Shown here: piece after piece, positions 12,103-59,968 of the stretch
Layout of the letters: the number at the start of each line of letters is the position of its first letter
How positions within the stretch are numbered: position 1 is the stretch's first letter
Assembly: GCA_963736875.1 (NCBI GenBank)
Contig: CAVTQH010000003.1
Span: forward strand, 65,756 to 129,755
From: Candidatus Amesbacteria bacterium
GTDB lineage: Bacteria; Patescibacteriota; Microgenomatia; CAZETR01; Amesbacteraceae
Direction: 5' to 3'
DNA length: 64,000 nucleotides
Notes under the pieces: generated by a model
What the model was told of the DNA's origin: nothing
The model's input: the letters and a program-made list of their open reading frames with translations, nothing else
Databases searched by the model: none
Program-made: the position numbers and the translations under genes

Positions 12103-13861
12103 GTGAGGTATAATTTCGCTGGTATGATGTTTTCCGTTCTGGCCGGCTATCTGGAAAAATTAGAGGAGACGAGTTCGAGGCTGGAGATGACGCGGGTGCT
12201 GGCACGGCTTTTAGACGAGGTGGAGCCGGAGAGAGGGGAAAGCGACAACGTATATGATTCAGGGGATGCTGGGACCGAAATACAATAATCCGGATATGGG
12301 GATGGCGGAAAAACAGGTAATTAAAGCAATTGAAAGACTGAGTGATCAGGATGTAGTAAAAGTGTTTAAATCAGAAGGAGATTTGGGGCTGACAGTTGAG
12401 AAAATCAAATTACAAAAATTAAATAATAAATCAAATTCAAAACTCAAAGTTCAGGATGTTTTTGTGAAACTGACGGAAATTGCGAAAGTAGGCGGGGTGG
12501 GGAGCCAGGAAGAGAAGATTAGGAAGTTAAGCGATTTGTTGACCGGGTTGGATCCCAAATCGGCAAAATACGCGGTGAAAATGGTTTTGGGAAGGATGCG
12601 GGGCGGGTTTTCGGATATGACAATACTGGATGCATTGTCCTGGATGACGACGGGCGATAAAAGTTTACGGCCGGAAATTGAAAGAATATACAATGTAAGG
12701 GCGGATTTGGGGGAAGTGGTGAAGATGGTTAAAAGCAGAAGACCGGAAGAGCTGAAGAATATTAGAGTTGATCCGGAAACGGGGGTACCGATTTTAGTGG
12801 CCCGGGCGGAAAGGGAAAAAACAATCGGGAAAATCTGGGAAAGATGCGGGATTTCAGCAGCCGAGCATAAACTGGACGGATTGAGAATAGAGGCACATGT
12901 CAATAAATCACAAATAACACTTTTTTCCAGGGGTTTGGAGAATGTGACAGGAATGTACCCCGATATTGTAAAAGGGCTTAAAGAGCAGGTGAGGAAAAAT
13001 TGTATTTTAGACGGAGAAATGATTGCGGTGGGCAGGGACGGTAAATACCTGCCTTTTCAGGAGACAGTACAGAGAAAGAGGAAATATGACATTTTGGAAA
13101 TGATGGCTGAAGTACCTCTGAAATATTATATTTTTGATATTTTGGCAGTTGGTCGAAAAAGCATGTTAGATGAGCCGAATGAAAAAAGGTGGGAAGAATT
13201 AACCAAAGTTCTTCAGAAAGGAGAGACGGTGAGATTGATGCCCAGAAGGATGGTGAAGTCGGAAAAGGAGATGGAAGAGTTTTTCAGGGAAGCTTTGGCT
13301 GACGGTACCGAGGGGATGGTGGTGAAAAAATTGGACGGGATTTACCGTTCCGGCAGCAGGGACTTTAATTGGATAAAGTATAAAAAAAGTTACCAGGAGA
13401 CTGGGGAAGCGGATACAATTGATGCAGTGGTTATGGGATATGACGCCGGGCAGGGAAAGCGGTCAGGTTTTGGCGTAGGCGGATTTTTGATCGGGGTGTA
13501 TGACAAAAGGAGGGATAAATTTCTGACCATTGCCAAAATCGGAACGGGATTAAAAGATGAGGAGTGGAGACAGTTGAATGAAAAATGCAAAATTTATGCC
13601 GTAAAAAGCAAACCGGATAATTATGAAGTGAGTAAACAAATGGAGTGCGACGGATGGGTAAAGCCGGAGATGGTAGTGGAAGTGAAATGTGATGAGATTA
13701 CCAGATCGCCGATGCATACCAGCGGATATGCGCTGAGATTTCCCAGGTTGATTAATTTCCGGGAAATGAAAGTGGAAGATACGGCAACTCCCGGTGAAAT
13801 AATCAGATTGTTTGAATTACAAAGTAAAAAAACGAAGGGAGGTGGAGAAGATGGCGGTTAA
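12103..13861 (+). CDS. ATP-dependent DNA ligase (one frameshift near 12235-12255, GGGG/AAA run)
   Basis: N-terminus 'FSVLAGYLEKLEETSSRLEMTRVLARLL' matches ATP-dependent ligase DNA-binding domain. Downstream frame carries the adenylation domain ('EHKLDGLRIEAH' KxDG lysine motif) and OB domain. The two ORFs (12103-12288, 12254-13861) are in different frames. Confidence 0.75.
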
Positions 13862-14204: not shown

Positions 14205-14833
14205 TGTTTCACCGGGGAGTAAATAGGCAGCAGATGCTGGAAAGGATCCGGCAGGTGGGGGTGTCTGACTCACGGGTAATGAAAGCTTTGGAGATGGCGG
14301 ACAGGAAGTTGTTTGTACCGGGGGAGTGGCAGGGGCAGGCATATGAGGACGGACCGCTACCGATCGGATTCGGGCAGACAATCTCCCAACCGTATACGGT
14401 TGCCAGGATGGTGGAGTTGTTAATTTTCAATTTTCAATTACCAATTTTCAAAGCGAAAGTGCTGGAGATCGGGACGGGGAGCGGATGGCAGACGGCCGTT
14501 CTGGCGGGACTTTTTGAGCAAGTTTACTCAGTGGAGATAATACCGGAACTATCCCGGCAGGCAAAAATAAGAATCAAGAATTTAAAATTGAGGAATGTAA
14601 GGATATTAAATGGTGACGGGAAGAAGGGGTGGCCGGAGGATGCGCCTTATGACGCGATTATCTGCGGGGCTAACGCCGGTAAAATCCCGGAGGCCTGGGT
14701 GAAGCAGGTCGCTTCCGGAGGGAGAATTGTGTGTCCGGTGAAAGGAGTGATGACGAGGATAATAAAAACTACGAATTCCAAACATTTGGAGATTGAGGAA
14801 TTCGGGGAATATAGTTTCGTACCGCTGGTATAA
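14204..14833 (+). CDS. pcm: protein-L-isoaspartate O-methyltransferase, carrying an in-frame heptamer-array insertion
   Basis: 'GQTISQPYTVARMVELL' and 'VLEIGTGSGWQTAVLA' SAM-MTase motif I. The usual '..LKPGD.' segment between them is replaced by 'IFNFQLPIFKA', encoded by ATTTTCA-type repeats. Confidence 0.8.
   Translation: MFHRGVNRQQMLERIRQVGVSDSRVMKALEMADRKLFVPGEWQGQAYEDGPLPIGFGQTISQPYTVARMVELLIFNFQLPIFKAKVLEIGTGSGWQTAVLAGLFEQVYSVEIIPELSRQAKIRIKNLKLRNVRILNGDGKKGWPEDAPYDAIICGANAGKIPEAWVKQVASGGRIVCPVKGVMTRIIKTTNSKHLEIEEFGEYSFVPLV
14423..14450 (+). repeat. 28-nt heptamer array (ATTTTCA ATTTTCA ATTACCA ATTTTCA) in-frame inside pcm
   Basis: Four tandem 7-mers read directly. Near-identical arrays occur at 48119-48146, 55578-55605, 59280-59307 and 40654-40681. 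Confidence 0.7.
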
Positions 14834-22312: not shown

Positions 22313-23803
<1,491 letters not shown>

Positions 23804-27407: not shown

Positions 27408-27706
27408 GATTGAGACGGTTGGTTTAGTAAATTATAAACCCATTATGGACTGCAGCGCGAAAGTGACCACATATGAGGATGGGTGATGGTGGATGCGCAA
27501 GGAATATCAAAGCAGAGCTTTTCTTTGTAATTGTGGTGGGCTGCCTAGGAGTCGGACCTAGCATCTCCTTCTTATCAGGAAGGCATTCTACCGCTAAACT
27601 AGCAGCCCTTTTTGAGTATTTGAATTATATCGCAGGCGGGGGATTTGAGCGAGAGTAAGAGATATGACACTTGACATGTTAAGTATTGAAGGTTTAAGAT
27701 TTCCCG

Positions 27707-31345: not shown

Positions 31346-31459
31346 CTGATTTGGTTGTCAGTCCCGGTCCCGCTTTGTACGGGATCGAGATTGACAACCA
31401 AAATACCGGTTGCTCTTTGAAAAGTGAAGAAAATAAAGTAGTAGAGCCGTATTTTTTAT

Positions 31460-34737
<3,278 letters not shown>

Positions 34738-34794: not shown

Positions 34795-34912
34795 TCCCGG
34801 TCATCTGAGCGGCGTGGAACTACCTCTTCCCATTCCGAACAGAGCCGTAAAATGCGCCAGCGCGGACAATAGCTAAGTCGCGAGACTTCGTGAAGATACG
34901 TCATGGCCGGGA
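34795..34912 (+). rRNA. rrf: 5S ribosomal RNA
   Basis: Helix I CCCGGTCAT / ATGGCCGGG; internal 'CCCATTCCGAACAGAG...GCGCCAG' loop-C/helix-III region. Followed by a T8 run (34922-34929). Confidence 0.8.
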
Positions 34913-40637: not shown

Positions 40638-40697
40638 TTATACACATTGTTCAATTTCCGATTTCTAATTCCTAATTACTATATAAACTTATCCACA
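40638..40697 (+). promoter_or_regulatory. two consensus DnaA boxes (TTATACACA 40638-40646; TTATCCACA 40689-40697) flanking a 28-nt heptamer array (40654-40681)
   Basis: Both 9-mers fit TTATNCACA exactly and lie in the same orientation 51 nt apart. The sequence between them is ATTTCCG ATTTCTA ATTCCTA ATTACTA. Confidence 0.4.
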
Positions 40698-40722
40698 AAA
40701 GGCTATTTAAAGCCATATTCAC

Positions 40723-40753
40723 TATATGATATCCCACTATGGGATATCATATA
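40723..40753. repeat. perfect 14-bp inverted repeat (TATATGATATCCCA-CTA-TGGGATATCATATA) followed by a (TCGC)n microsatellite
   Basis: Read directly; arms 40723-40736 and 40740-40753. CTCGCTCTCGCTCGCT at 40755-40770. Confidence 0.6.
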
Positions 40754-41241
40754 TCTCGCTCTCGCTCGCTATAGGCTTGAAATATTTGACAGAAAATGTT
40801 ATAAACCCGGTGAGGGTTACGAGAAGCAATGAAAAAACTGCTCAAATGGTTACGGGGTGAGTCTGTCCCCGAAAAGAGGAGGATTAGGCGGGTGTTTAAG
40901 AGTTCAAACCCCTGGATGCGGCAGCAGCTGAGAAAAATGAGTTCTATGAATCAGGAGATTATTTCAGTTCGGGCCGGAAGGTAATTACTCCGGCAAAAAA
41001 AGAAGCATCGCTAACGCTAGCTTGAGGGCCACGAGTAGCAATGCCTCTTTGAGATAAAAACGCCTGGACAGAATGGGCGCCTTCACTTAATTTAAGGTGA
41101 TAACATTCGCCCGTTTTTTTGTCAAGAAAAAAATCTGCCCAATAAGCGCACTTTTTTAAACTTTTTAGCTATACTGATAAATTGTTTAAAATGCATCTTG
41201 AAACGGGGGGTGGTGGGTAGGGCAGGCCTACCACTTCCCGT

Positions 41242-47385: not shown

Positions 47386-48471
47386 CTATTTTACAATTAT
47401 TCGGGGGATTTGGGGATTTAGGCGGGAAACAACTTCGTAATTAATGGTGCCGGTTTTGGCGGCGATTTCGTCGGCGGTGACGTGAGGACCGATCAGTTCG
47501 ACGATATTTTGCGGTTTTATAACGGGCTTTGGGATATTTATCATGGTGAAGTTCATGGCGACCCGGCCGATTACCGGAAGATATTTGCCTGCTGACCAAA
47601 CCCTGCCGTTATTACTTAATTTGCGGTCGTAACCGTCTGAGTAACCGACGGGTAAAACTGCCATCATGCCGGGTTTTTTGCAGATATAGGCGGAGCTGTA
47701 ACCGACGCTTTCACCGGTTCGGATACTGCGGATTTGGACCGGGTGACATTTCCAGGAAAGAACCGGTTTTAGTTTTTTTGGGGGAGAGTGTTTTTTAACA
47801 TACGGGTCCGGCCAGAGACCGTAAAGAGAAATTCCGATCCTGATCATGTCCAAGTGGGTTTGGGGCCAGAGGATCGCGGACGAAGAGCTGCTGCAGTGGG
47901 CCAGAATCCGGGGGAAATAAAATTTGGTTTGGAAAACGGCCTGATTAAAAATATCCAGCTGTATCAGGCTTTGGGGGGAACCTTCATCGGAACTGTGGAA
48001 GTGGGTATAGATTCCTTCCGGGATCAGTTTTTGATGATGGCGTAAAAGGCTTAATGCTTTGAGCAGATCGACAAGAGATAATCCCAGACGGTTGGTCCCG
48101 GTGTTAACTTTCAGATGAATTTTTAATTTTAAATTTTTAATTTTTAACAAATAATCCAAAGAATGAACACAAAGCGAAATGTTGTTTTTGGAGGCGAGAG
48201 AAAAATCAGATGCGGAAATTGGAGCAGCTATTAGGATTTTAGAATTGCTAATTTTCTTTACTTCCAATGCTTCTTGAATGGTGTTGACAGCAAAGAATTC
48301 AACACGATGATTGAGAATTTCCACTACTTCTTTCAGGCCGTGGCCATAGGCGTTGGCTTTGACCATGACCATTATCCGGGTGGCGGGGGAGACTAAATTT
48401 TTATATTGGGATAGGTTATGCACAAGGGACCTTCGGGAAATTTCCAGCCAATGGAGATATGAATTGACCAT
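47386..48471 (-). CDS. alr: alanine racemase, carrying an in-frame heptamer-array insertion
   Basis: 'VKANAYGHGL' PLP-lysine motif, 'KIHLKVNTGTNRLGL'. The preceding 'LKIKNLKL' is encoded by the 48119-48146 heptamer array. Confidence 0.85.
   Translation of the reverse strand: MVNSYLHWLEISRRSLVHNLSQYKNLVSPATRIMVMVKANAYGHGLKEVVEILNHRVEFFAVNTIQEALEVKKISNSKILIAAPISASDFSLASKNNISLCVHSLDYLLKIKNLKLKIHLKVNTGTNRLGLSLVDLLKALSLLRHHQKLIPEGIYTHFHSSDEGSPQSLIQLDIFNQAVFQTKFYFPRILAHCSSSSSAILWPQTHLDMIRIGISLYGLWPDPYVKKHSPPKKLKPVLSWKCHPVQIRSIRTGESVGYSSAYICKKPGMMAVLPVGYSDGYDRKLSNNGRVWSAGKYLPVIGRVAMNFTMINIPKPVIKPQNIVELIGPHVTADEIAAKTGTINYEVVSRLNPQIPRIIVK
48119..48146 (+). repeat. 28-nt heptamer array (ATTTTTA ATTTTAA ATTTTTA ATTTTTA) inside alr (minus-strand gene)
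   Basis: Read directly; same plus-strand orientation as the other copies. Confidence 0.65.
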
Positions 48472-53232: not shown

Positions 53233-54454
53233 GGTAATCTTTGAACATAGTAAAACTGGGAGCGGCGGGGGATAACAGGCAGATTTTTCCCGCGGCGGTA
53301 TGTTTGTGAGCCAGCCTTACGGCTTCGGACATGCTTTTGGGATGAAAATATTTGATTTTAGGGTGGATTTCCAGTTTTTGGATTTCCTTCCAGATCCGGG
53401 GCCCGGTGGCGGGAAAAACGATCAGGGTTTTAATGTGACTATCCAGAATTTTGCCGGCTAAAAGGGAATAATCCTGTTTGCGTTCATGACCGCCGGCGAT
53501 CAGAGTTGCGATATCCGGAGCCAAAGCGTCAATGGCGGCGATGGTGGCTTCGGGGATGGTGGCCAGGGTATCGGCGTAGTATTTGATGCCTTTTTTGGTA
53601 CCTGCCAGATCCAGCCGGGTTTCCAATGGCTTAAAAGAGGCAATTGACCGGTAAACAGCATCTTTCGGCAGTTTCATAATACCGGCAATTTTAACAGCCG
53701 GGAGAATGTTGTATTTGTTGTGATTTCCCAAAAGTTGGGTGGAGATTTGCCGGTCGTAATCCAGAAGGGAGAACGGAAGTTTGCGGGCGGGAGTCAGTTC
53801 CGCGGTTTGAGCGGGAAGGGGAAAGTCGTTGTTGTAAATAAAATAGTCGTTCCGGGTTTGGAAACGGGCGATATTTCTTTTGGCTTCGACATATTCGGCA
53901 AAAGATTTGTGATAATCAAGGTGGTCGCGATAGATATTCTGCAAAACCGCAATATGGGGGGAAACGGTCAGATCCATAAGCTGGTATGAGGAAAGCTCCA
54001 TTACCACCCAGGTTTCTTTGTCAATTTCCGGTAAAAAGTCCAGAGCAGGACGGCCGATATTGCCCACCAGAACGGATTTGATCTTATTTGCATCCAGCAT
54101 ATGGTGAATCAAAGATACGGTAGTGGATTTACCCTTGGTACCCGTCACCCCGATAATTTTTTGACAGGGACAAACCTCGAAAAAGATTTGGGTATGGGAA
54201 GTAATAATAACTCCTTCTTCTGCGGCTTTTTCGATTTCAGGTTTGTGAGGTGAAATTCCCGGGGTTTTGATAATTAATTTAAAATCCTGAAGATGTTTCA
54301 AATAATCCGGACCGTCTTTTTGGTCGGCGGTTGCGATTTTGAGACGGGGGAATCGGGTATGAAGAAAGTTAAAAGTGGACTGACCTTCCCGGGCAAAACC
54401 CAGGATGAGAATTTTATCCAGTTTGGATATCCGGTTAAGAATGGGTGACGGCAT
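53189..54454 (-). CDS. murD: UDP-N-acetylmuramoylalanine--D-glutamate ligase
   Basis: 'ILILGFAREGQSTFNFL' Rossmann N-domain and 'VIGVTGTKGKSTTVSLIHHML' P-loop. Start is ATG 54454 (the ORF is open to 54499). Confidence 0.85.
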   Translation of the reverse strand: MPSPILNRISKLDKILILGFAREGQSTFNFLHTRFPRLKIATADQKDGPDYLKHLQDFKLIIKTPGISPHKPEIEKAAEEGVIITSHTQIFFEVCPCQKIIGVTGTKGKSTTVSLIHHMLDANKIKSVLVGNIGRPALDFLPEIDKETWVVMELSSYQLMDLTVSPHIAVLQNIYRDHLDYHKSFAEYVEAKRNIARFQTRNDYFIYNNDFPLPAQTAELTPARKLPFSLLDYDRQISTQLLGNHNKYNILPAVKIAGIMKLPKDAVYRSIASFKPLETRLDLAGTKKGIKYYADTLATIPEATIAAIDALAPDIATLIAGGHERKQDYSLLAGKILDSHIKTLIVFPATGPRIWKEIQKLEIHPKIKYFHPKSMSEAVRLAHKHTAAGKICLLSPAAPSFTMFKDYRDEYEQYKQAINSL

Positions 54455-54737
54455 ATTTGAGGATTTTACTAAATTTTTCCGGCAGATTGGGATTATCAAG
54501 CCAGGAGGCGAGGATTTCTTTTAAACCCTGTCCGGTATAGGCAGCCCGGGCTTCGGCGCGGGTTAAAACACATTCGAAAGGTTTGACGGGATTATTACCT
54601 ATTAAATCATCGAGAATTTTTTGGTTTTCGGGCAGATCGGGAGGATAAGTGCCCATAATTTCCGTCACTTTTTCTTTGCTGATAAAGCAGGCAAGCATCA
54701 GGGCAGTGGAAACACATTTGGGACAGTGCGGCACCAC
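54435..54737 (-). CDS. hypothetical Cys-containing fragment, possibly the C-terminal remnant of the upstream disrupted PP-loop gene
   Basis: 'MVPHCPKCVSTALMLAC' resembles the QueC-type C-terminal CxxC(x)nC zinc site. Preceded by two other short minus-strand ORFs in different frames (55189-54992, 55023-54607). Confidence 0.25.
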   Translation of the reverse strand: MVPHCPKCVSTALMLACFISKEKVTEIMGTYPPDLPENQKILDDLIGNNPVKPFECVLTRAEARAAYTGQGLKEILASWLDNPNLPEKFSKILKYAVTHS

Positions 54738-55136
54738 AATTTGTTCGGTTGCTGTAGCCGATTGCCAGTTTAAAGTTGTGGTTACAGCTGGTAAAAATAT
54801 TTGAAAAATATTGGGGATATTGGCAGAAAAGTTTGGTAATTTGCAGTTCTATAAAGGCGGTCTTAAAAAACGAAAAGCAATTTACGCGGTACAGGATAAT
54901 GATTTGAGATAAGCATTTAAGATCCGATTCGAATTCAAGGGTTTTGGAATATTGGTGGTTGATTTCATGACCCAGATAGGTGGTATTGCCTTCACCTGCT
55001 AGAGCGCTCATTGGAAAAGGCAATGGCAGAGGAACCGGAAAGATGTGCCGTTAAGAGGGAAGCGAAAGAGTAGAAAGCGGAAACCGGAACGTGGCCGTTT
55101 AAATATCCCTTTTGGTTTAGTTCAAGCAAGTACGGA

Positions 55137-55745
55137 TCAAGAAGGCTTTTTGCAACGATATGGTTTGAGACCGGCGGTTTGGCAGACATTTAACATTATA
55201 GGGACGGGATTAATAATAAAGGGAATAACTTTAAAATGAGGTTTGAGAAGTTCCAGAGTGACGATGGAGTCTTTGCCGCCGCCTACCGGAACCAATACTT
55301 TGTGCTCGCTACCTGGTCGTTGCCTGGATCCAGCTGCGCGCGATGTTTGAGACGCCTCCGTCTGCTCGCCTATTATTATTTGAAGAAAGTCATTATCTGT
55401 GAAATCTATTTGGTTTTGGTAAAAATATTCACCCATGCCTTTTATAAATAATTTTTCCCAGAATTTGATCTGATTTACCGATAGGTTTCCGGCGGTAATT
55501 TCAATAACCGGGGAACAGGTGAGTTTCCAGTAGGAGGGCATAAGGGAGAGACCGACGTGGAAAACGAGGTTGTCCAAATTTTCAATTTTCAATTTACAAT
55601 TTTCAATTATTATTCTGTGGGTGAATTTATGATCAGGGGGAATTGAGAAGAAATATTTAATTTCCAAATTGTCATTTACGATTTCATATTCACACTTTTC
55701 GTAAATAAATTTTGGATATTTCCGAAGAACATCTTGAAATTTCAT
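55137..55745 (-). CDS. PP-loop (SGGxDS-like) ATP pyrophosphatase superfamily protein with unknown N-terminal domain; probably 3'-truncated by frameshifts
   Basis: 'KVLVPVGGGKDSIVTLELL' PP-loop near the C-terminus of a 202-aa ORF. The next frame continues with 'NGHVPVSAFYSFASLLTAHLSGSSAIAF', reminiscent of QueC-family 'FVPGRNILFLTLAAIYA'. Contains the heptamer array at 55578-55605. Confidence 0.4.
   Translation of the reverse strand: MKFQDVLRKYPKFIYEKCEYEIVNDNLEIKYFFSIPPDHKFTHRIIIENCKLKIENLDNLVFHVGLSLMPSYWKLTCSPVIEITAGNLSVNQIKFWEKLFIKGMGEYFYQNQIDFTDNDFLQIIIGEQTEASQTSRAAGSRQRPGSEHKVLVPVGGGKDSIVTLELLKPHFKVIPFIINPVPIMLNVCQTAGLKPYRCKKPS
55578..55605 (+). repeat. 28-nt heptamer array (ATTTTCA ATTTTCA ATTTACA ATTTTCA) inside the minus-strand PP-loop gene
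   Basis: Differs from the pcm copy at only 2-3 positions; encodes 'ENCKLKIEN' in the host gene frame. Confidence 0.7.
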
Positions 55746-55764: not shown

Positions 55765-56430
55765 ATGGAAGGACCCATCGATAATGAATCCCCTGATTTG
55801 ATAAGAGCAAAAGACATTAATATTATAAAAATAGAAGATCCGGGTCAGAAGCAGAAAATAACGGTGATATTACATGAAATGATCAAGGATTCAGAAACCC
55901 ATCCTATACAAGGAATCGTACCCAAGGAAATGACAAAAGAAGAGATTGAAAAAGCAACCTCAAGTTTAAAGATATTTTCCGGAGTCAATGGTTATGAAAA
56001 GTGGTATACAGAGAACGTCAACCCTTTGAGTAAGAAGGATAAATTTAAACTCCGGTTATCTTTTTTGGGTGCCGGAGCCGTATTAGCAACTGATCAGGGG
56101 GATAAGGATAAAAGCAGTTGCATAATATTATTAGAACCTAAAGTTAAGTATTTACTGCATGAGTTGAAGCATTTTGCCGACTATACGGTTTTTGGTAAGG
56201 AATATGTTGATAAAACTGCAAATTTACCATCGCCTATACCCTGGAGAATTATCCAGACAGCATTGTCGATATCCGGTCCGATAATAGGTGTGAAATATCC
56301 GGAAACAGGATTGTATATCAGTTCTTTGGCCTTAGGATTGTTAGCAATTAGTTTGATTGTAGAGTCTAAATATCGTTTAAATACAGGAGAACGGAGATCC
56401 TCTAAGGCAGAAGAGAAATTCTTAAACTGA
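55765..56430 (+). CDS. hypothetical protein (221 aa, C-terminal TM)
   Basis: ORF only; hydrophobic 'LYISSLALGLLAISLIV' near the C-terminus. Confidence 0.35.
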   Translation: MEGPIDNESPDLIRAKDINIIKIEDPGQKQKITVILHEMIKDSETHPIQGIVPKEMTKEEIEKATSSLKIFSGVNGYEKWYTENVNPLSKKDKFKLRLSFLGAGAVLATDQGDKDKSSCIILLEPKVKYLLHELKHFADYTVFGKEYVDKTANLPSPIPWRIIQTALSISGPIIGVKYPETGLYISSLALGLLAISLIVESKYRLNTGERRSSKAEEKFLN

Positions 56431-57682
56431 TTCCAGTATTTGTTTTGCAAGTTTGTAAGAGTTACCGGAACCCATGACAACTACGATGTCAAGACCGGAT
56501 TTATGGGAGACGAGATATGAAACAATTTCATTAAATTCCGGAATATAAATGGCGTTGGGGTGGTGCATGGCTTTAATGATGTCAGCTCCGGTAAAATCTC
56601 CCGGATCTTTTTCCCGGGAGGCGAAAATTTTTGAGACTATCACGCCATCTGCTTTTCTTACAGCTGTCGGCAGTAGGTCTGACATAACCCTGAGACGGGA
56701 GAAGGTGTGGGGTTCAATAATAACAGTCAATTTTTGACCGGGATAGAGTTCCTTGATTGCAGAAATGACAGCGGCAAAAGATGAGGGATGGTTGGCATAG
56801 TCGTCATATACCTTAATGCCGTTTTTTTCACCCAGAAAATCCAGCCTGCGTTCAAGGCCCCGGAAGTTTTTGAGGGCGGAAGTTAAATCCCGGCCGGAAA
56901 TTTTTAAAACTTCGGCAAGTTTGATTATCGCCAAAGCATTCGATTTGTTGTGGTTGCCGGGCTGGGAGAGGATCAGGTTTTCGGGAAAGTCAGATAAACG
57001 GTAAGGGACGGAGTTTTCAGGAAATTTCAGTTTACGGGAAAGCGGGGAGTCGGCGTTGAAAATTACCACTCCTCCCGGTTTGAGACGGTTGATAAAACGC
57101 TGGTAACAGGAAAGCATGTTTTTAATGGTGCCGAAATATTCGGGATGATCGTATTCCACCAGAGTCAGAAGAATTACGTCAGAATGATAGGTGGCAAAAT
57201 TATCATGGAATTCATCGGCTTCGCAGATGAAATACCCGGATTTTCCGATACGGACATTGTTCTGCCAATCTTTTACCGTGGCTCCCTACTTCAACTGTAG
57301 GATCGAGACCCGCTTTTTCCAGAAGAAGTCCTGCCATGGCTGTGGTGGTGGATTTGCCGTGGGTACCTGCGACGCAAATGACATATTTATCCCGGTGGAG
57401 GTATTTACCCATAAAGTCCTGCCATTTGGTTAATATACCTTTTTCTTTTCCCAGGGCTGTTTCCGGGTGGTCGTCGTTTTGGTAAAAAACTGCGGGAGTG
57501 ACAGCCAGAATATCCGCATTATCCAAATGGGCCGGGCTGTGACCGGAATAGAGTTTGATACCCGGTTTTCTGACTTTTTCAATGTAAGGCGTATCCAGTG
57601 AGAGGTCGCAGCCGGAGATTTGGTAGCCTTGGGAGCGGGCAATCTGGGCGACGGCGGACATGCCGGAGCCGCCGATGCCCAT
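56422..57682 (-). CDS. murC: UDP-N-acetylmuramate--L-alanine ligase with one frameshift (~57278-57284, GGG run)
   Basis: N-terminal ORF (57682-57212) 'MGIGGSGMSAVAQIA...YVICVAGTHGKSTTTAMAGLL'. Its tail reads '...EVGSHGKRLAEQ*', whereas the -1 frame reads 'GATVKDWQNNVRIGK', the expected MurC sequence. C-terminal ORF (57159-56422) 'VEYDHPEYFG...DDYANHP'. Confidence 0.8.
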
Positions 57683-57689
57683 GAAGTGA

Positions 57690-58784
57690 ATGTGTTTGGT
57701 TTTGGCTTCTATATGCGTATTATATCGCCACCCGCGATATAATAATCTGGTGCATTATTATTTGGGGTGGGTGCTCATCTCGTTTGCCGTAACTTTCGGA
57801 TTGATGATTCCTTTCATCAATCTATTGTATAAACTGAAATTTCAAAGAGGAAAAGAGACCGAGGAAATCAGGAAGGACGCGACCAAGAACTTTTATAAGA
57901 TCCGGGAAATGCATGCTGTCAAGGCCGGGATTCCGACGGGAGGGGGAATAATCGTGGCGTTTGTGGTGACGGTTTTATTTGTGGCGGTTGCCGGGGTGAT
58001 GATTTCCAGGGGACAGCTGTTTTCGGGACATCCGATGTGGTGGGAGCTGGCGGTGCTGTTTTATACATTGACGGGTTTTGGCCTTCTGGGCCTTTATGAT
58101 GACCTGATGAAAATATTCGGTTTTGCCAAAACCGGTTTTTTCGGTCTGAGAATGCGGCATAAACTGATACTGCAGGTTTTATTGGGGATCGGGACGGCTG
58201 TAATGCTTTATTGGGGACTGGGGATAAATTTTATCAATATCCCGTTTGTGGGACTGGTGCGGCTCGGGTGGTGGTATTTGCCGATGGCAGTGGTTCTGGT
58301 AGTGGGATTTGCCAACTCATTTGATTTTACGGACGGATTGGACGGACTTTCATCCGGACTTCTGATGGTGTGCCTGTGGGCGTTCTGGGTAATTTCGTTT
58401 CAGGATCTGGACCATGTGCTGTCGCTTTTTATTGCCATTTGGCAGGGAGCGGTGATTGCCTACCTGTATTTCAATATCTTTCCGGCCCGGTTGATGCTGG
58501 GCAACGTCGGCGGGCTGTCTTTTGGTGCGGGATTGGCGGTAATCGGTCTGTTATCAGGGAAAATTGTGGCACTTCTAATTATCGGGGGAGTGTTTATTGC
58601 CGAAGGAATGAGCAGCCTGCTGCAGCTTTTTTCCAAAAGATTTATGAAGCGGAGGATTTTTCCGATTGCGCCGCTGCACCACTGGCTGCAGCTTATGGGC
58701 TGGGAGGAGCCGAAGATTGTGGCCCGGGCATGGCTGACCGGAGCGGCATTGGCGCTTTTCGGGGTTTGGCTGGCGATGCTATGA
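57690..58784 (+). CDS. mraY: phospho-N-acetylmuramoyl-pentapeptide transferase
   Basis: 'KAGIPTGGGIIV', 'DDLMKIFG', 'NSFDFTDGLDGL' (DDxxD and aminosugar motifs). The true start is probably a GTG/TTG near 57760-57780; the 5' part of the ORF is promoter sequence. Confidence 0.85.
   Translation: MCLVLASICVLYRHPRYNNLVHYYLGWVLISFAVTFGLMIPFINLLYKLKFQRGKETEEIRKDATKNFYKIREMHAVKAGIPTGGGIIVAFVVTVLFVAVAGVMISRGQLFSGHPMWWELAVLFYTLTGFGLLGLYDDLMKIFGFAKTGFFGLRMRHKLILQVLLGIGTAVMLYWGLGINFINIPFVGLVRLGWWYLPMAVVLVVGFANSFDFTDGLDGLSSGLLMVCLWAFWVISFQDLDHVLSLFIAIWQGAVIAYLYFNIFPARLMLGNVGGLSFGAGLAVIGLLSGKIVALLIIGGVFIAEGMSSLLQLFSKRFMKRRIFPIAPLHHWLQLMGWEEPKIVARAWLTGAALALFGVWLAML
57718..57744. promoter_or_regulatory. 11-bp perfect inverted repeat (TATTATATCGC-CACCC-GCGATATAATA) in the divergent murC / mraY promoter region; contains a TATAAT -10 hexamer
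   Basis: Read directly. TATAAT at 57738-57743 is oriented for mraY and its mirror for murC. Confidence 0.4.
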
Positions 58785-59968
58785 TCAGAAAACTTAAGAA
58801 TTTATATCATTTGTTTAATGCGGTTTACTGGACGTATCGGTGCGGATATCCGGCGAAGAAACTGTATATCATCGGAGTGACGGGAACCGACGGAAAAACG
58901 ACTACCTGCACCCTGATTTATGAAATACTTAAAGCCGCAGGGATTAAAGTCGGACTGTTGACAACCGTGGCGGCTGTTATCGGCGGTGAGGAAATCGAGA
59001 CCGGGCTGCATACCACCAATCCCGACCCGAGTCTTTTGCAGCCGATTCTGAAAAAGGCCGCGGAGAAAGGGATAACCCATATGGTTTTGGAAGTGACCTC
59101 CCACGGTCTGGACCAGAACCGGGTCTGGGGATGCAATTTTCAAATCGGGGTTCTGACCAATGTTACTCATGAGCATCTGGATTACCATGGGTCGTTTGAG
59201 AAATACCGGGAAGCGAAACTGAAATTGTTCAGAAATGTCAAATATGCAGTATTGAACCGAGATGACCCTTCTTATGATAATTTTCAATTTTTAATTTCCA
59301 ATTTTAAATCAATTCCTAAAATTAAAATTTTCAAATATACAAAAACGAAAATTGAAAATATCAGTCCGGAGCTGGCGGGGGATTACAACGGGCATAATAT
59401 TGCGGCGGCGGAGATGGTTTGCAGGATCCTTGGAATTAATCAGGGGGTGATAGCCAAGGTGATAAAAGAATTCCGGGGAGTTCCCGGCAGGAGAGAAGAG
59501 GTTAAAGCGGGGCAAAATTTTAAAGTGTATGTGGATTTTGCCCATACACCGAATGCTTTGGAGGCGGTTTTAACCCAGCTTAAAAAAGAGCTGCCCAAAG
59601 GCAAAAAACTGGTTGCGGTATTCGGGGCTACCGGTGAGAGGGATAAAGAAAAAAGACCGATGATGGGGGAAATTGCGGCCAAACTGGCAGATGTAATGAT
59701 AATTACCTCGGATGATATCCGAAGCGAGGATCAGGATGAGATTGCCGCCCAGATTATGAGCGGAATACCCGAAACTCAATTAAAAGATATCAAAGTATTT
59801 AAGGAGAATGACCGGAAGAAAGCGATAATAATGGCTATAAAAATGGCTAAAGCGGGGGATATTGTTCTGCTGGCCGGGAAAGGCCACGAAAAAACAATTC
59901 TTTTGGGGAAAACCGAATATCCCTGGTCGGATGCGGAGGTCGCCAAAGAATTGCTGACTGACAGATAA
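58781..59968 (+). CDS. murE: UDP-N-acetylmuramoyl-L-alanyl-D-glutamate--2,6-diaminopimelate (or L-Lys) ligase
   Basis: 'IIGVTGTDGKTTTCTLIYEIL' P-loop, 'VTHEHLDYHG', C-terminal 'FGATGERDKEKRP'. ATG 58781 overlaps the mraY stop (ATGA). Contains the heptamer-array insertion 'NFQFLISNFKSIPKIKIFKY'. Confidence 0.85.
   Translation: MIRKLKNLYHLFNAVYWTYRCGYPAKKLYIIGVTGTDGKTTTCTLIYEILKAAGIKVGLLTTVAAVIGGEEIETGLHTTNPDPSLLQPILKKAAEKGITHMVLEVTSHGLDQNRVWGCNFQIGVLTNVTHEHLDYHGSFEKYREAKLKLFRNVKYAVLNRDDPSYDNFQFLISNFKSIPKIKIFKYTKTKIENISPELAGDYNGHNIAAAEMVCRILGINQGVIAKVIKEFRGVPGRREEVKAGQNFKVYVDFAHTPNALEAVLTQLKKELPKGKKLVAVFGATGERDKEKRPMMGEIAAKLADVMIITSDDIRSEDQDEIAAQIMSGIPETQLKDIKVFKENDRKKAIIMAIKMAKAGDIVLLAGKGHEKTILLGKTEYPWSDAEVAKELLTDR
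59280..59307 (+). repeat. 28-nt heptamer array (ATTTTCA ATTTTTA ATTTCCA ATTTTAA) inside murE
   Basis: Read directly; same family and orientation as the other copies. Confidence 0.65.

Follow-up and report, generated by a model that had tools for sequence, protein, structure and literature searches.

Heptanucleotide tandem arrays held in frame within conserved genes of a Candidatus Amesbacteria genome

Since work in 1990 and 2007, heptamer tandem repeats have been recognized as the most strongly over-represented class of long microsatellites in bacteria, and their origin and function are unexplained. The heptamers of the short tandemly repeated repetitive (STRR) type in cyanobacteria were reportedly described by Mazel in 1990. 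The subject of this study is a set of short period-7 arrays, with the unit AATTTTC and variants of it, in a 64-kb stretch of DNA (the window) from Candidatus Amesbacteria, of the candidate phyla radiation (CPR); four of them lie in frame within the genes pcm, alr, murL and murE, and array counts given for the window cover this stretch. The closest described systems are the prokaryotic heptanucleotide long simple-sequence repeats (LSSR) of Mrazek, Guo and Shah (2007), as recounted in later papers (PMC4679880, PMC4692102). The arrays share with LSSR, as far as those accounts describe them, the tandem head-to-tail arrangement of 7-nt units, a striking excess of period 7, a proposed origin by slippage, and a function that is unexplained. 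The same accounts place LSSR whose unit is not a multiple of three mainly in intergenic DNA, while the arrays of the present lineage are nearly all in frame in housekeeping genes; they are also short (4-5 units) and conserved in nucleotide sequence across species, rather than hypervariable as LSSR are in those accounts.

Other heptamer repeats resemble the arrays in some respects. The GGGGAYT and GGGAATC repeats of Nostoc and Xanthomonas (Rehm 2015, PMC4692102) form tandem arrays, as do STRR, but are mostly intergenic and are often contained within larger dispersed repeats with shared flanks; in addition, G-rich heptamers of the STRR type can form quadruplexes, and AATTTTC cannot. TAACTGA direct repeats, found in Beggiatoaceae, Cyanobacteria, and Bacteroidetes (MacGregor 2015, PMC4679880), are likewise heptamers, occur in 2-6 copies per set with a patchy phylogeny, and are restricted in coding sequence, with one orientation stopping all three frames. 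Most of these sets, however, lie just upstream of start codons, for which a translational role was suggested, and the few coding cases are at protein ends or in hypothetical proteins rather than in conserved loops of essential enzymes (PMC4679880). Heptanucleotide repeats also occur in contingency loci such as the hmw promoters of H. influenzae (PMC8262952); these are slippage-prone 7-nt tandem repeats too, but their copy number varies between strains and switches surface genes, whereas the arrays in the window are invariant in length and lie in essential metabolic genes. A literature search found no paper on heptanucleotide repeats in CPR or Microgenomates, or on such repeats in frame in essential genes. 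What is unusual here is the presence of in-frame, nucleotide-conserved heptamer arrays in essential CPR genes, the repeat class itself being already known.

A first-pass annotation of the window had reported four arrays of (ATTTTCA)4, and all four are present with a period of 7 and T-rich on the plus strand (Table 1). In a search for (ATTTTCA)x4 allowing up to 3 mismatches, matches were found at 14423-14450 (2 mismatches), 55578-55605 (1 mismatch), and 59280-59307 (3 mismatches), all on the plus strand; the control, 100 dinucleotide-preserving shuffles, gave zero matches. The alr array at 48119-48146 has 4 mismatches to this pattern, with units ATTTTTA and ATTTTAA, and in the murL array a further register extends the match to 55612. 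Tandem Repeats Finder (TRF) assigned a period of 7 to each of the four, at 4.3-4.6 copies and 79-92% matches. A lag-7 autocorrelation scan of the window returned the four arrays and a more diverged fifth one, just downstream of the radA stop (40626) and probably non-coding, while at the same threshold lags of 4-6 and 8-12 returned nothing in the window. Runs of (AATTNNN)x3 or more are restricted in the window to the four arrays. It had been argued that a 28-nt array requires compensating flanks to preserve the frame; the periodic tract is in fact 30-35 nt when partial units are included, and no compensation is needed. The fifth array adjoins a dyad-symmetric, repeat-rich stretch at 40700-40760 (cactatatgatatcccactatgggatatcatatat; TRF period 15) in the intergenic region downstream of radA.

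Table 1. Host genes, heptamer arrays, and a related tract in the 64-kb window
Feature	Position	Strand	Sequence on + strand	Identification or product
pcm (protein-L-isoaspartate O-methyltransferase)	14234..14833	+		Pfam PF01135, E = 4e-55; P0001 100% identical
alr (alanine racemase)	47386..48471	-		Pfam PF01168 and PF00842; P0121
murL-like (UDP-MurNAc-L-Ala-L-Glu epimerase family)	54435..55745	-		tblastn with MurL of L247/L248
murE-type Mur ligase	58781..59968	+		Pfam PF08245 and PF02875; P0245 100% identical over 395 aa
Period-7 array in pcm	14422..14452	+	AATTTTC AATTTTC AATTACC AATTTTC AA	Encodes IFNFQLPIFK
Period-7 array in alr (- gene)	48118..48147	T-rich on +	AATTTTT AATTTTA AATTTTT AATTTTT AA	Coding strand TTA AAA ATT AAA AAT TTA AAA TTA AAA ATT = LKIKNLKLKI
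Period-7 array in murL (- gene)	55577..55612	+	AATTTTC AATTTTC AATTTAC AATTTTC AATTATT	Encodes ENCKLKIEN
Period-7 array in murE	59279..59309	+	AATTTTC AATTTTT AATTTCC AATTTTA AAT	Encodes NFQFLISNFK
Fifth array, more diverged	40654..40682	T-rich on +	ATTTCCG ATTTCTA ATTCCTA ATTACTA	Lag-7 scan
Degenerate A-rich period-7-like tract	12401..12448	in + gene 12254-13861	AAAATCA AATTACA AAAATTA AATAATA ...	TRF period 13, 72% matches; encodes KIKLQKLNNKSNSKLK

The preference for period 7 extends to related and to distant genomes. Amesbacteria-like DNA totalling 154 kb contains 23 period-7 and 10 period-6 arrays but only 0-1 for periods 8-12, and local shuffles of this DNA contain 0 arrays; almost all of the arrays lie in long open reading frames (ORFs) of conserved genes, at a density of about 1 per 6 kb. 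A scan of one genome per species with ATTTTNAATTTTNAATTNNNAATTTTNA gave at least 120 matches, and those listed include Nostocales, Bacteroidota, many Patescibacteria lineages, and genomes of 60-66% GC; (AATTTTG/C)4-5 arrays are present in many Nostocales, Bacteroidota, and Patescibacteria among the matches listed. In a wider sample of 887 kb around listed AATTTTN arrays, from many phyla, period 7 accounts for 197 arrays compared with 0-8 for each of periods 5, 6, and 8-11, and approximately 86 of the 197 are built from different heptamers, TAACTGA and CCCCAGT among them. When metagenomes were scanned with the A-rich variant that lacks stops, at least 121 occurrences were obtained, and of the 121 listed, 65 fall in the LKI[KE]NLKLKI frame of ORFs 100 codons or longer; the 770 kb of listed loci collected with this variant contain 203 further heptamer arrays, about 1 per 4 kb. 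The matches listed from a scan of viral contigs are mostly AT-rich tandem repeats of giant viruses. Array length drops sharply beyond about 5 units, without a long tail. In copy number, frequency, and period, the arrays of the window are heptanucleotide simple-sequence repeats of the LSSR/STRR type, a known class that the first-pass annotation did not recognize.

Several unit types may occur in one genome: L002 contains AAATTCG, AAAATCA, GATCTCA, and CATCYAG, and L249 contains CAGTTGN and GATGCTA. The arrays within a contig nevertheless tend to share a unit flavour (30:6 vs 2:16), a test confounded by the GC content of the contigs. At positions 9590-9700 of L002, two GC-richer arrays that contain GATC (GATCTCA x3 and CATCTAG/CATCCAG) are 40 nt apart within a SpoU-methylase gene. 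In Nostocales (L017, L023, L084, L090, L106, L115, and others), the (AATTTTG)4-5 arrays have conserved flanks, TTCTTT...GAATTGATTTGTCTCC or ...GAGCGAAGCG, and the heptamer array there is part of a larger dispersed repeat family.

All four host reading frames remain open across the arrays, as the first-pass annotation had stated, although one host was misnamed: its PP-loop gene (55137-55745) is the N-terminal part of murL, which is frameshifted elsewhere. The identity of MurL is taken from orthologues in L247-L249, on which the Pfam labels PF26299 and PF26298 sit. The window murL aligns with these orthologues end to end, with the middle of about 140 codons out of frame and the break between about 54760 and 55140; the N-terminal frame has stops at 55137, 55122, 55008, 54999, 54882, and 54849, and at least two frameshifts are needed. 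These are located away from the array and reflect either a pseudogene or indel errors in the assembly. A Mur ligase on the minus strand at 56422-57682, orthologous to L247 6078-7376, is also split into two ORFs with a frame change near 57281-57285, which makes two broken genes within one peptidoglycan cluster. For murE, the mechanically called ORF (58370-58784 region) runs 137 codons further upstream and overlaps the glycosyltransferase gene at 57690-58784; according to the database protein P0245 (395 aa), the true start is 58781, with a 4-nt overlap with the upstream stop.

The open frames are maintained at some cost to the regularity of the arrays. A perfect TGAAAAT array has TGA in every frame; in murL a single ATTTACA unit converts the in-frame TGA to TGT, and in alr an in-frame TAA is avoided by a single TTTAAAA unit. 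The arrays thus come as close to perfect repetition as an open reading frame permits. Selection on the encoded peptides does not readily explain this regularity. If short low-complexity or heptad-like loop peptides such as LKIKNLKL or IFNFQFS were favoured, arrays could result from the use of common AT-rich codons; native Alr and Pcm segments do have similar peptides, a 7-nt period in DNA yields a 7-residue period in protein, and in a wider CPR metagenome sample of lower GC most arrays (43 vs 15) are A-rich on the coding strand, which fits proteomes rich in K, N, I, and E. This explanation is nonetheless very improbable and is largely refuted by the codons themselves. Given the peptides and the codon usage of the window, the joint probability of the codons in each array is 10^-2.3 to 10^-4.6; these codons include TTA (frequency 0.19 for Leu), CAA (0.37), TTC (0.28), and CCA (0.07 for Pro). 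In addition, one DNA unit encodes unrelated peptides on the two strands (IFNFQLPIFK or NFQFLISNFK in plus-strand genes, LKIKNLKLKI or ENCKLKIEN in minus-strand genes), synonymous positions are frozen across species, and arrays of this kind are also found in non-coding DNA. The claim that the feature exists at the DNA level is thus borne out, both by the improbable codons and by nucleotide conservation above that of the surrounding gene. Structural modelling, which had been proposed for the pcm segment, is available as an AlphaFold model of Pcm (pLDDT 92): the array peptide is predicted to link helix 53-63 to the first Rossmann strand (75-80), and the pLDDT of this loop is below that of its neighbours. 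A sigma-70 promoter was considered for the A-rich variant TTGAAAATTGAAAATTTAAAATT, but by eye the spacing of TTGAAA and TAAAAT, about 10 nt, is too short.

Arrays recur at the same codons in orthologous genes. In Pcm orthologues of 57-70% identity, related twelve-residue segments are present at the array position (IFNFQFSIFNSK, IFNSKFSIFKSK, IQNSKFEIRNLK, IENGELRIENSK, and IRDSRFKIQDLR), while Pcm of Amesbacteria P0039 is exactly 7 residues shorter there and non-CPR Pcm proteins are 5 shorter. The pcm of L001 has a perfect (ATTTTCA)x4.7 at the array codons of the window, and that of L002 has (ATTCGAA)x3 followed by ATTTGAA, with site and length as in the other two and every unit changed. At a second site in Pcm, the native sequence already resembles an array peptide. 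The Alr array peptide is shared by the window and P0125 (74% identical); the closest Alr relative, P0122 (85% identical), has SRLKKYHLH there, of equal length and without an array, and in the alr of L126 (87% identical) the array is absent with length unchanged. In the DNA alignment, the difference is a sharp block of 29-30 nt (13/30 identical) between flanks that otherwise resemble the array-less relative. L125 has a near-identical 30-mer, TTAAAAATTAAAAATTTAAAATTAAAAATT, at the alr site of the window, at a second alr site, and in the next Mur ligase gene; the three sites fall within 18 kb, and the 30-mer is also present in the window. At the second alr site, the native EALxIRKLKLKN of other relatives already resembles the array peptide. 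Many MurE orthologues of 55-67% identity have NFQFSIFNFKS-like segments at the place of the array, while the closest relatives, P0246-P0248 (81-82% identical in the alignment), are without the array and exactly 7 codons shorter. The length difference from array-less orthologues is therefore 0 (alr) or 7 codons, which is 21 nt or three units (pcm and murE).

Arrays with a common unit are conserved much more strongly than the genes that contain them. The alr array is identical to the orthologous array of L125 at 29/30 nt, with 72% identity in the remainder of the gene, and the murE array is identical to that of L248 at 28/30 nt, with 66% in the remainder. Over orthologue pairs, nucleotide identity is 27/30, 29/30, 26/30, and 28/30 (87-97%) inside arrays with a shared unit and 62-72% outside; among codons for the same amino acid, 30/31 are identical inside and 42-56% outside. 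AATTTTC-type arrays are also perfectly conserved between diverged flanks in other contig pairs of 77-89% identity (including L163/L166 and L207/L231). In the murE array of L249, three units in a row show an identical A-to-G substitution (CAGTTTT x3) relative to the CAATTTT units of the window and L248. Arrays at orthologous sites thus follow one of two patterns, near-identity or concerted change. The length of coding arrays is constant across orthologues and near-identical contig pairs; in non-coding arrays, L188 and L213 (contigs about 90% identical) show one indel of a single 7-nt unit and one presence/absence difference. An intergenic complex repeat, CGCGAAT...CACGAATTT (period about 24), lies at 1555-1690 of L188 between two heptamer arrays that differ from L213. 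As hosts such as pcm, alr, murL, and murE and an array length identical in orthologues are not those of a phase-variable contingency locus, that candidate was rejected.

The same comparisons dispose of the concern that the arrays are chimeric or derived from primers. The frameshifts in the neighbouring mur genes do indicate that the assembly is not free of errors, but arrays occupy equivalent codons in independent ENA, JGI, Logan, and NCBI assemblies from other studies, and isolates from other phyla also have arrays in their genomes. This conservation refutes an artefact of assembly, primers, or chimerism, the probability of which is practically negligible. The comparisons also divide the earlier view that the arrays are lineage-specific insertions rather than old low-complexity loops. 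An insertion does not describe alr, which has the length of its 85%-identical orthologue and where native sites are already array-like, but pcm and murE do have 7 more codons than some orthologues. Conservation in distant orthologues, which would suggest an old loop, is seen in part: Pcm, Alr, and MurE proteins of 55-74% identity carry arrays at the same sites, even though the closest relatives of alr and murE are without them.

Short repetitive DNA that is tolerated in frame has a precedent in the Rickettsia palindromic elements (RPE), which reportedly insert in frame (Ogata 2000). Like RPE, the arrays lie in surface loops of housekeeping proteins; RPE are 100-150 bp, palindromic, and have clear empty sites, while the arrays of the window are 30 bp, tandem, and non-palindromic, and the length of alr is unchanged. 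The arrays could similarly be footprints or insertions of a small mobile element related to RPE, to repetitive extragenic palindromic (REP) sequences, or to miniature inverted-repeat transposable elements (MITEs), possibly mobilized as single-stranded DNA by a Y1 transposase and landing in frame. The net gain of 7 codons in pcm and murE and the patchy presence among orthologues would be consistent with this origin, and a strand-specific orientation is expected of single-strand transposition. The relatives L247 and L249 encode a Y1_Tnp protein (PF01797) at a syntenic position (L247 18351-18995, L249 15539-16216), although the window has no Y1_Tnp gene. The murL of L247 (4700-6081), which is comparable to an RPE case, contains two in-frame palindromic REP-like copies (CCCTCTCCTAAATTAGGAGAGGG..., peptide PSPKLGEG..GEV), one of them in the loop that holds the array in the window, and a third at the gene end. 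A mobile element is nevertheless improbable. There is no net insertion in alr, where the altered block is exactly the array of 29-30 nt; at three of the four arrays, neither terminal inverted repeats nor hairpins nor target duplications are present; a stop codon would arrive with any perfect array that landed in a minus-strand gene; and insertion does not explain the concerted change of units at fixed sites. Inverted repeats were not found around the pcm and alr arrays, and murL has only a weak 12-nt pair. In murE, the inverted partial copy belongs to the native, conserved K-rich sequence and folds weakly (z = -2.3). The MITE or hairpin reading is ruled out for three of the four arrays and is weak for the fourth. 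An origin from a diversity-generating retroelement was dropped, as no template repeat or reverse transcriptase is nearby and the targets are housekeeping genes.

The first-pass annotation had further claimed that all arrays have one orientation, linked to the chromosome strand. The window has a GC content of 0.45 and a strongly positive GC skew (0.12-0.42 in each 2-kb segment), and the five clear arrays are T-rich on this G-rich plus strand; the only tract in the opposite orientation is the degenerate A-rich one at 12401-12448. Of the 27 arrays in Amesbacteria-like loci, 20 have their T-rich side on the G-rich strand; with L002, in which the orientation is reversed, set aside, the figure is 18 of 20. 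Genes on the C-rich strand of these loci have 10 of 12 arrays in the stop-prone orientation, with the stop removed by a substitution, which indicates that orientation follows the chromosome strand and not the gene. Background composition does not explain this: four-fold degenerate sites on the plus strand of the window are G 0.41, A 0.24-0.28, C 0.18, and T 0.13-0.17 irrespective of gene strand, and with A in excess over T, a compositional cause of the T-rich orientation was ruled out. The purine skew at these sites is itself very strong and independent of gene orientation. A skewed oligomer of the KOPS or Chi type was also ruled out, because single AATTTTC heptamers outside the arrays of the window are found 9 times on the plus strand and 27 times on the minus strand, opposite to the arrays. 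In the wider CPR metagenome sample, the G-rich strand carries the T-rich side of 24 arrays and the A-rich side of 44, the reverse of the lineage, and because many arrays are orthologous, the rule comes from only about 8-9 independent sites. The strand rule is real for the Amesbacteria-like lineage, although weakly founded, and it is not general. The claim of one orientation therefore holds for the clear arrays of the window, and that of a strand link holds within the lineage and against its neutral skew, but neither extends to L002 or to the wider sample.

We give about an even chance to the explanation that the arrays are the product of a drive with a period of 7, by slippage or transient misalignment, filtered by the reading frame and by the tolerance of loops. 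Misalignment linked to replication, with a strong preference for a 7-nt register, would create tandem heptamers and would keep homogenizing them, either through slippage by one unit or through transient misalignment and realignment that copies a neighbouring unit at constant length. AT-rich proto-repeats, for example native segments of the L-K-I-K-N-L-K or I-x-N-F-x-F type, would be the starting material. Within genes, selection would retain arrays that are free of stops, lie in tolerant surface loops or linkers, and change length by 0 or 21 nt, while continued homogenization within an array would leave orthologous arrays either near-identical in DNA or altered in all units together. Misalignment together with this filter would account for the period specificity, the concerted changes, the removal of stops, the replacement of a block in alr, and the single-unit indels in non-coding DNA; because of the reading-frame filter, arrays that are read on the A-rich strand always have one stop-removing substitution. 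The misalignment, and a reason for the number 7, are what we infer from this pattern. To our knowledge, a misalignment mechanism with a 7-nt preference has been demonstrated in no organism. Several further points weigh against this explanation. Hypervariability is the norm for microsatellites, whereas these arrays rank with the best-conserved DNA of their genes in both nucleotides (87-97% inside vs 62-72% outside) and codons (30/31 vs about 50% identical for the same amino acid). A slip of one unit in an essential gene is lethal, so arrays should burden such genes. There is a length cut-off at around 5 units, the unit flavour tends to be common to different loci of a genome, and in this lineage the arrays are T-rich on a strand that favours A at neutral sites. 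These points all fit a selected DNA signal at least as well. The over-representation of heptanucleotides and the idea of polymerase slippage are both documented in the literature, as represented in two papers (PMC4679880, PMC4692102).

A selected signal at the DNA level, in which AATT is phased every 7 bp over about 30 bp and written into tolerant coding sequence, is the main rival, possible if tentative. It might be bound by an unknown protein, or be an oriented signal for the chromosome, replication, or uptake, with a unit that co-evolves with its factor in each species. Heptad operators are bound by ribbon-helix-helix proteins, and the arrays may resemble omega-type operators on the DNA side only, in that AATT recurs every 7 bp through 4-5 units. 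In Pasteurellaceae and Neisseriaceae, DNA uptake sequences (USS/DUS) are single 9-12-mers that occur about once per kb in both orientations, with one specificity per species. Like the arrays, they are DNA-level motifs gained within genes by substitution at tolerant sites, are conserved at orthologous positions, and have species dialects; the window lineage differs in that its heptamers are tandem, a genome has several unit types, and arrays number about 1 in 6 kb. ComEC and ComEA genes are present in the relative L249.

A signal would be favoured by nucleotide conservation far above that of synonymous sites, also seen in L163/L166 and L207/L231, by one 30-mer at three sites in 18 kb of L125 and again in the window, and by the gain of arrays without length change at sites that were already array-like, as with uptake sequences. 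The unit flavour common within contigs, a size held to about 4-5 units, the restriction of (AATTNNN)x3 or more to the four arrays of the window, and an orientation in the lineage that tracks the chromosome strand against both coding convenience and neutral skew point in the same direction. On the other hand, very different units in one genome (L002 and L249) make a single binding specificity unlikely, the flavour test is confounded by GC content, and neither L002 nor the wider CPR sample (24 vs 44) obeys the orientation rule. The closest relatives also manage without the alr and murE arrays, the lone heptamer is not skewed as the arrays are, and no candidate factor was found. In its most specific form, that the arrays are a selected signal of about 30 bp with AATT every 7 bp, oriented by replication strand in this lineage and kept near-invariant in loops of essential genes, the proposal is rather unlikely. 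If true, it would imply an unknown heptad-reading protein or process in chromosome organization, lagging-strand priming, or DNA uptake, and it could account for the over-representation of heptamers in bacterial genomes.

The setting in essential genes is informative because the frame, the stop codons, and the orthologues expose the forces that act on the arrays, and this coding context makes a mutational drive of period 7 and a selected DNA signal directly testable against one another. With about 1 array per 4-6 kb, the arrays also give CPR proteins lineage-specific low-complexity loops and are potential hotspots for frameshifts in assemblies.

Heptamer arrays are not the only repeats in these proteins. 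Long in-frame insertions (10-35 residues) that are mutually dissimilar are found at fixed loops of Alr (P0125, P0129, P0134, and P0135), Pcm (P0013 and P0016), and MurE (P0256, P0257, P0259, and P0268) in relatives, and the insert SPLLIQERGKGRG is common to two Pcm proteins; the housekeeping proteins of the lineage seem to accept several kinds of repeat-derived insert. An Rfam scan of the window found rRNA and tRNA genes only, with no match at the heptamer arrays. The 16S rRNA (22314-23803) and 23S rRNA (31456-34736) genes are unlinked, being 7.6 kb apart with protein genes between them, and a region at 34796-34912 is grouped with them. A minus-strand tRNA-Ile gene (27534-27608) lies between the two, and tRNA-Ala is directly upstream of 23S. 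The 23S match is 3281 nt compared with a model of 2925 nt, and the additional 350 nt or so represent an intervening sequence or an intron.

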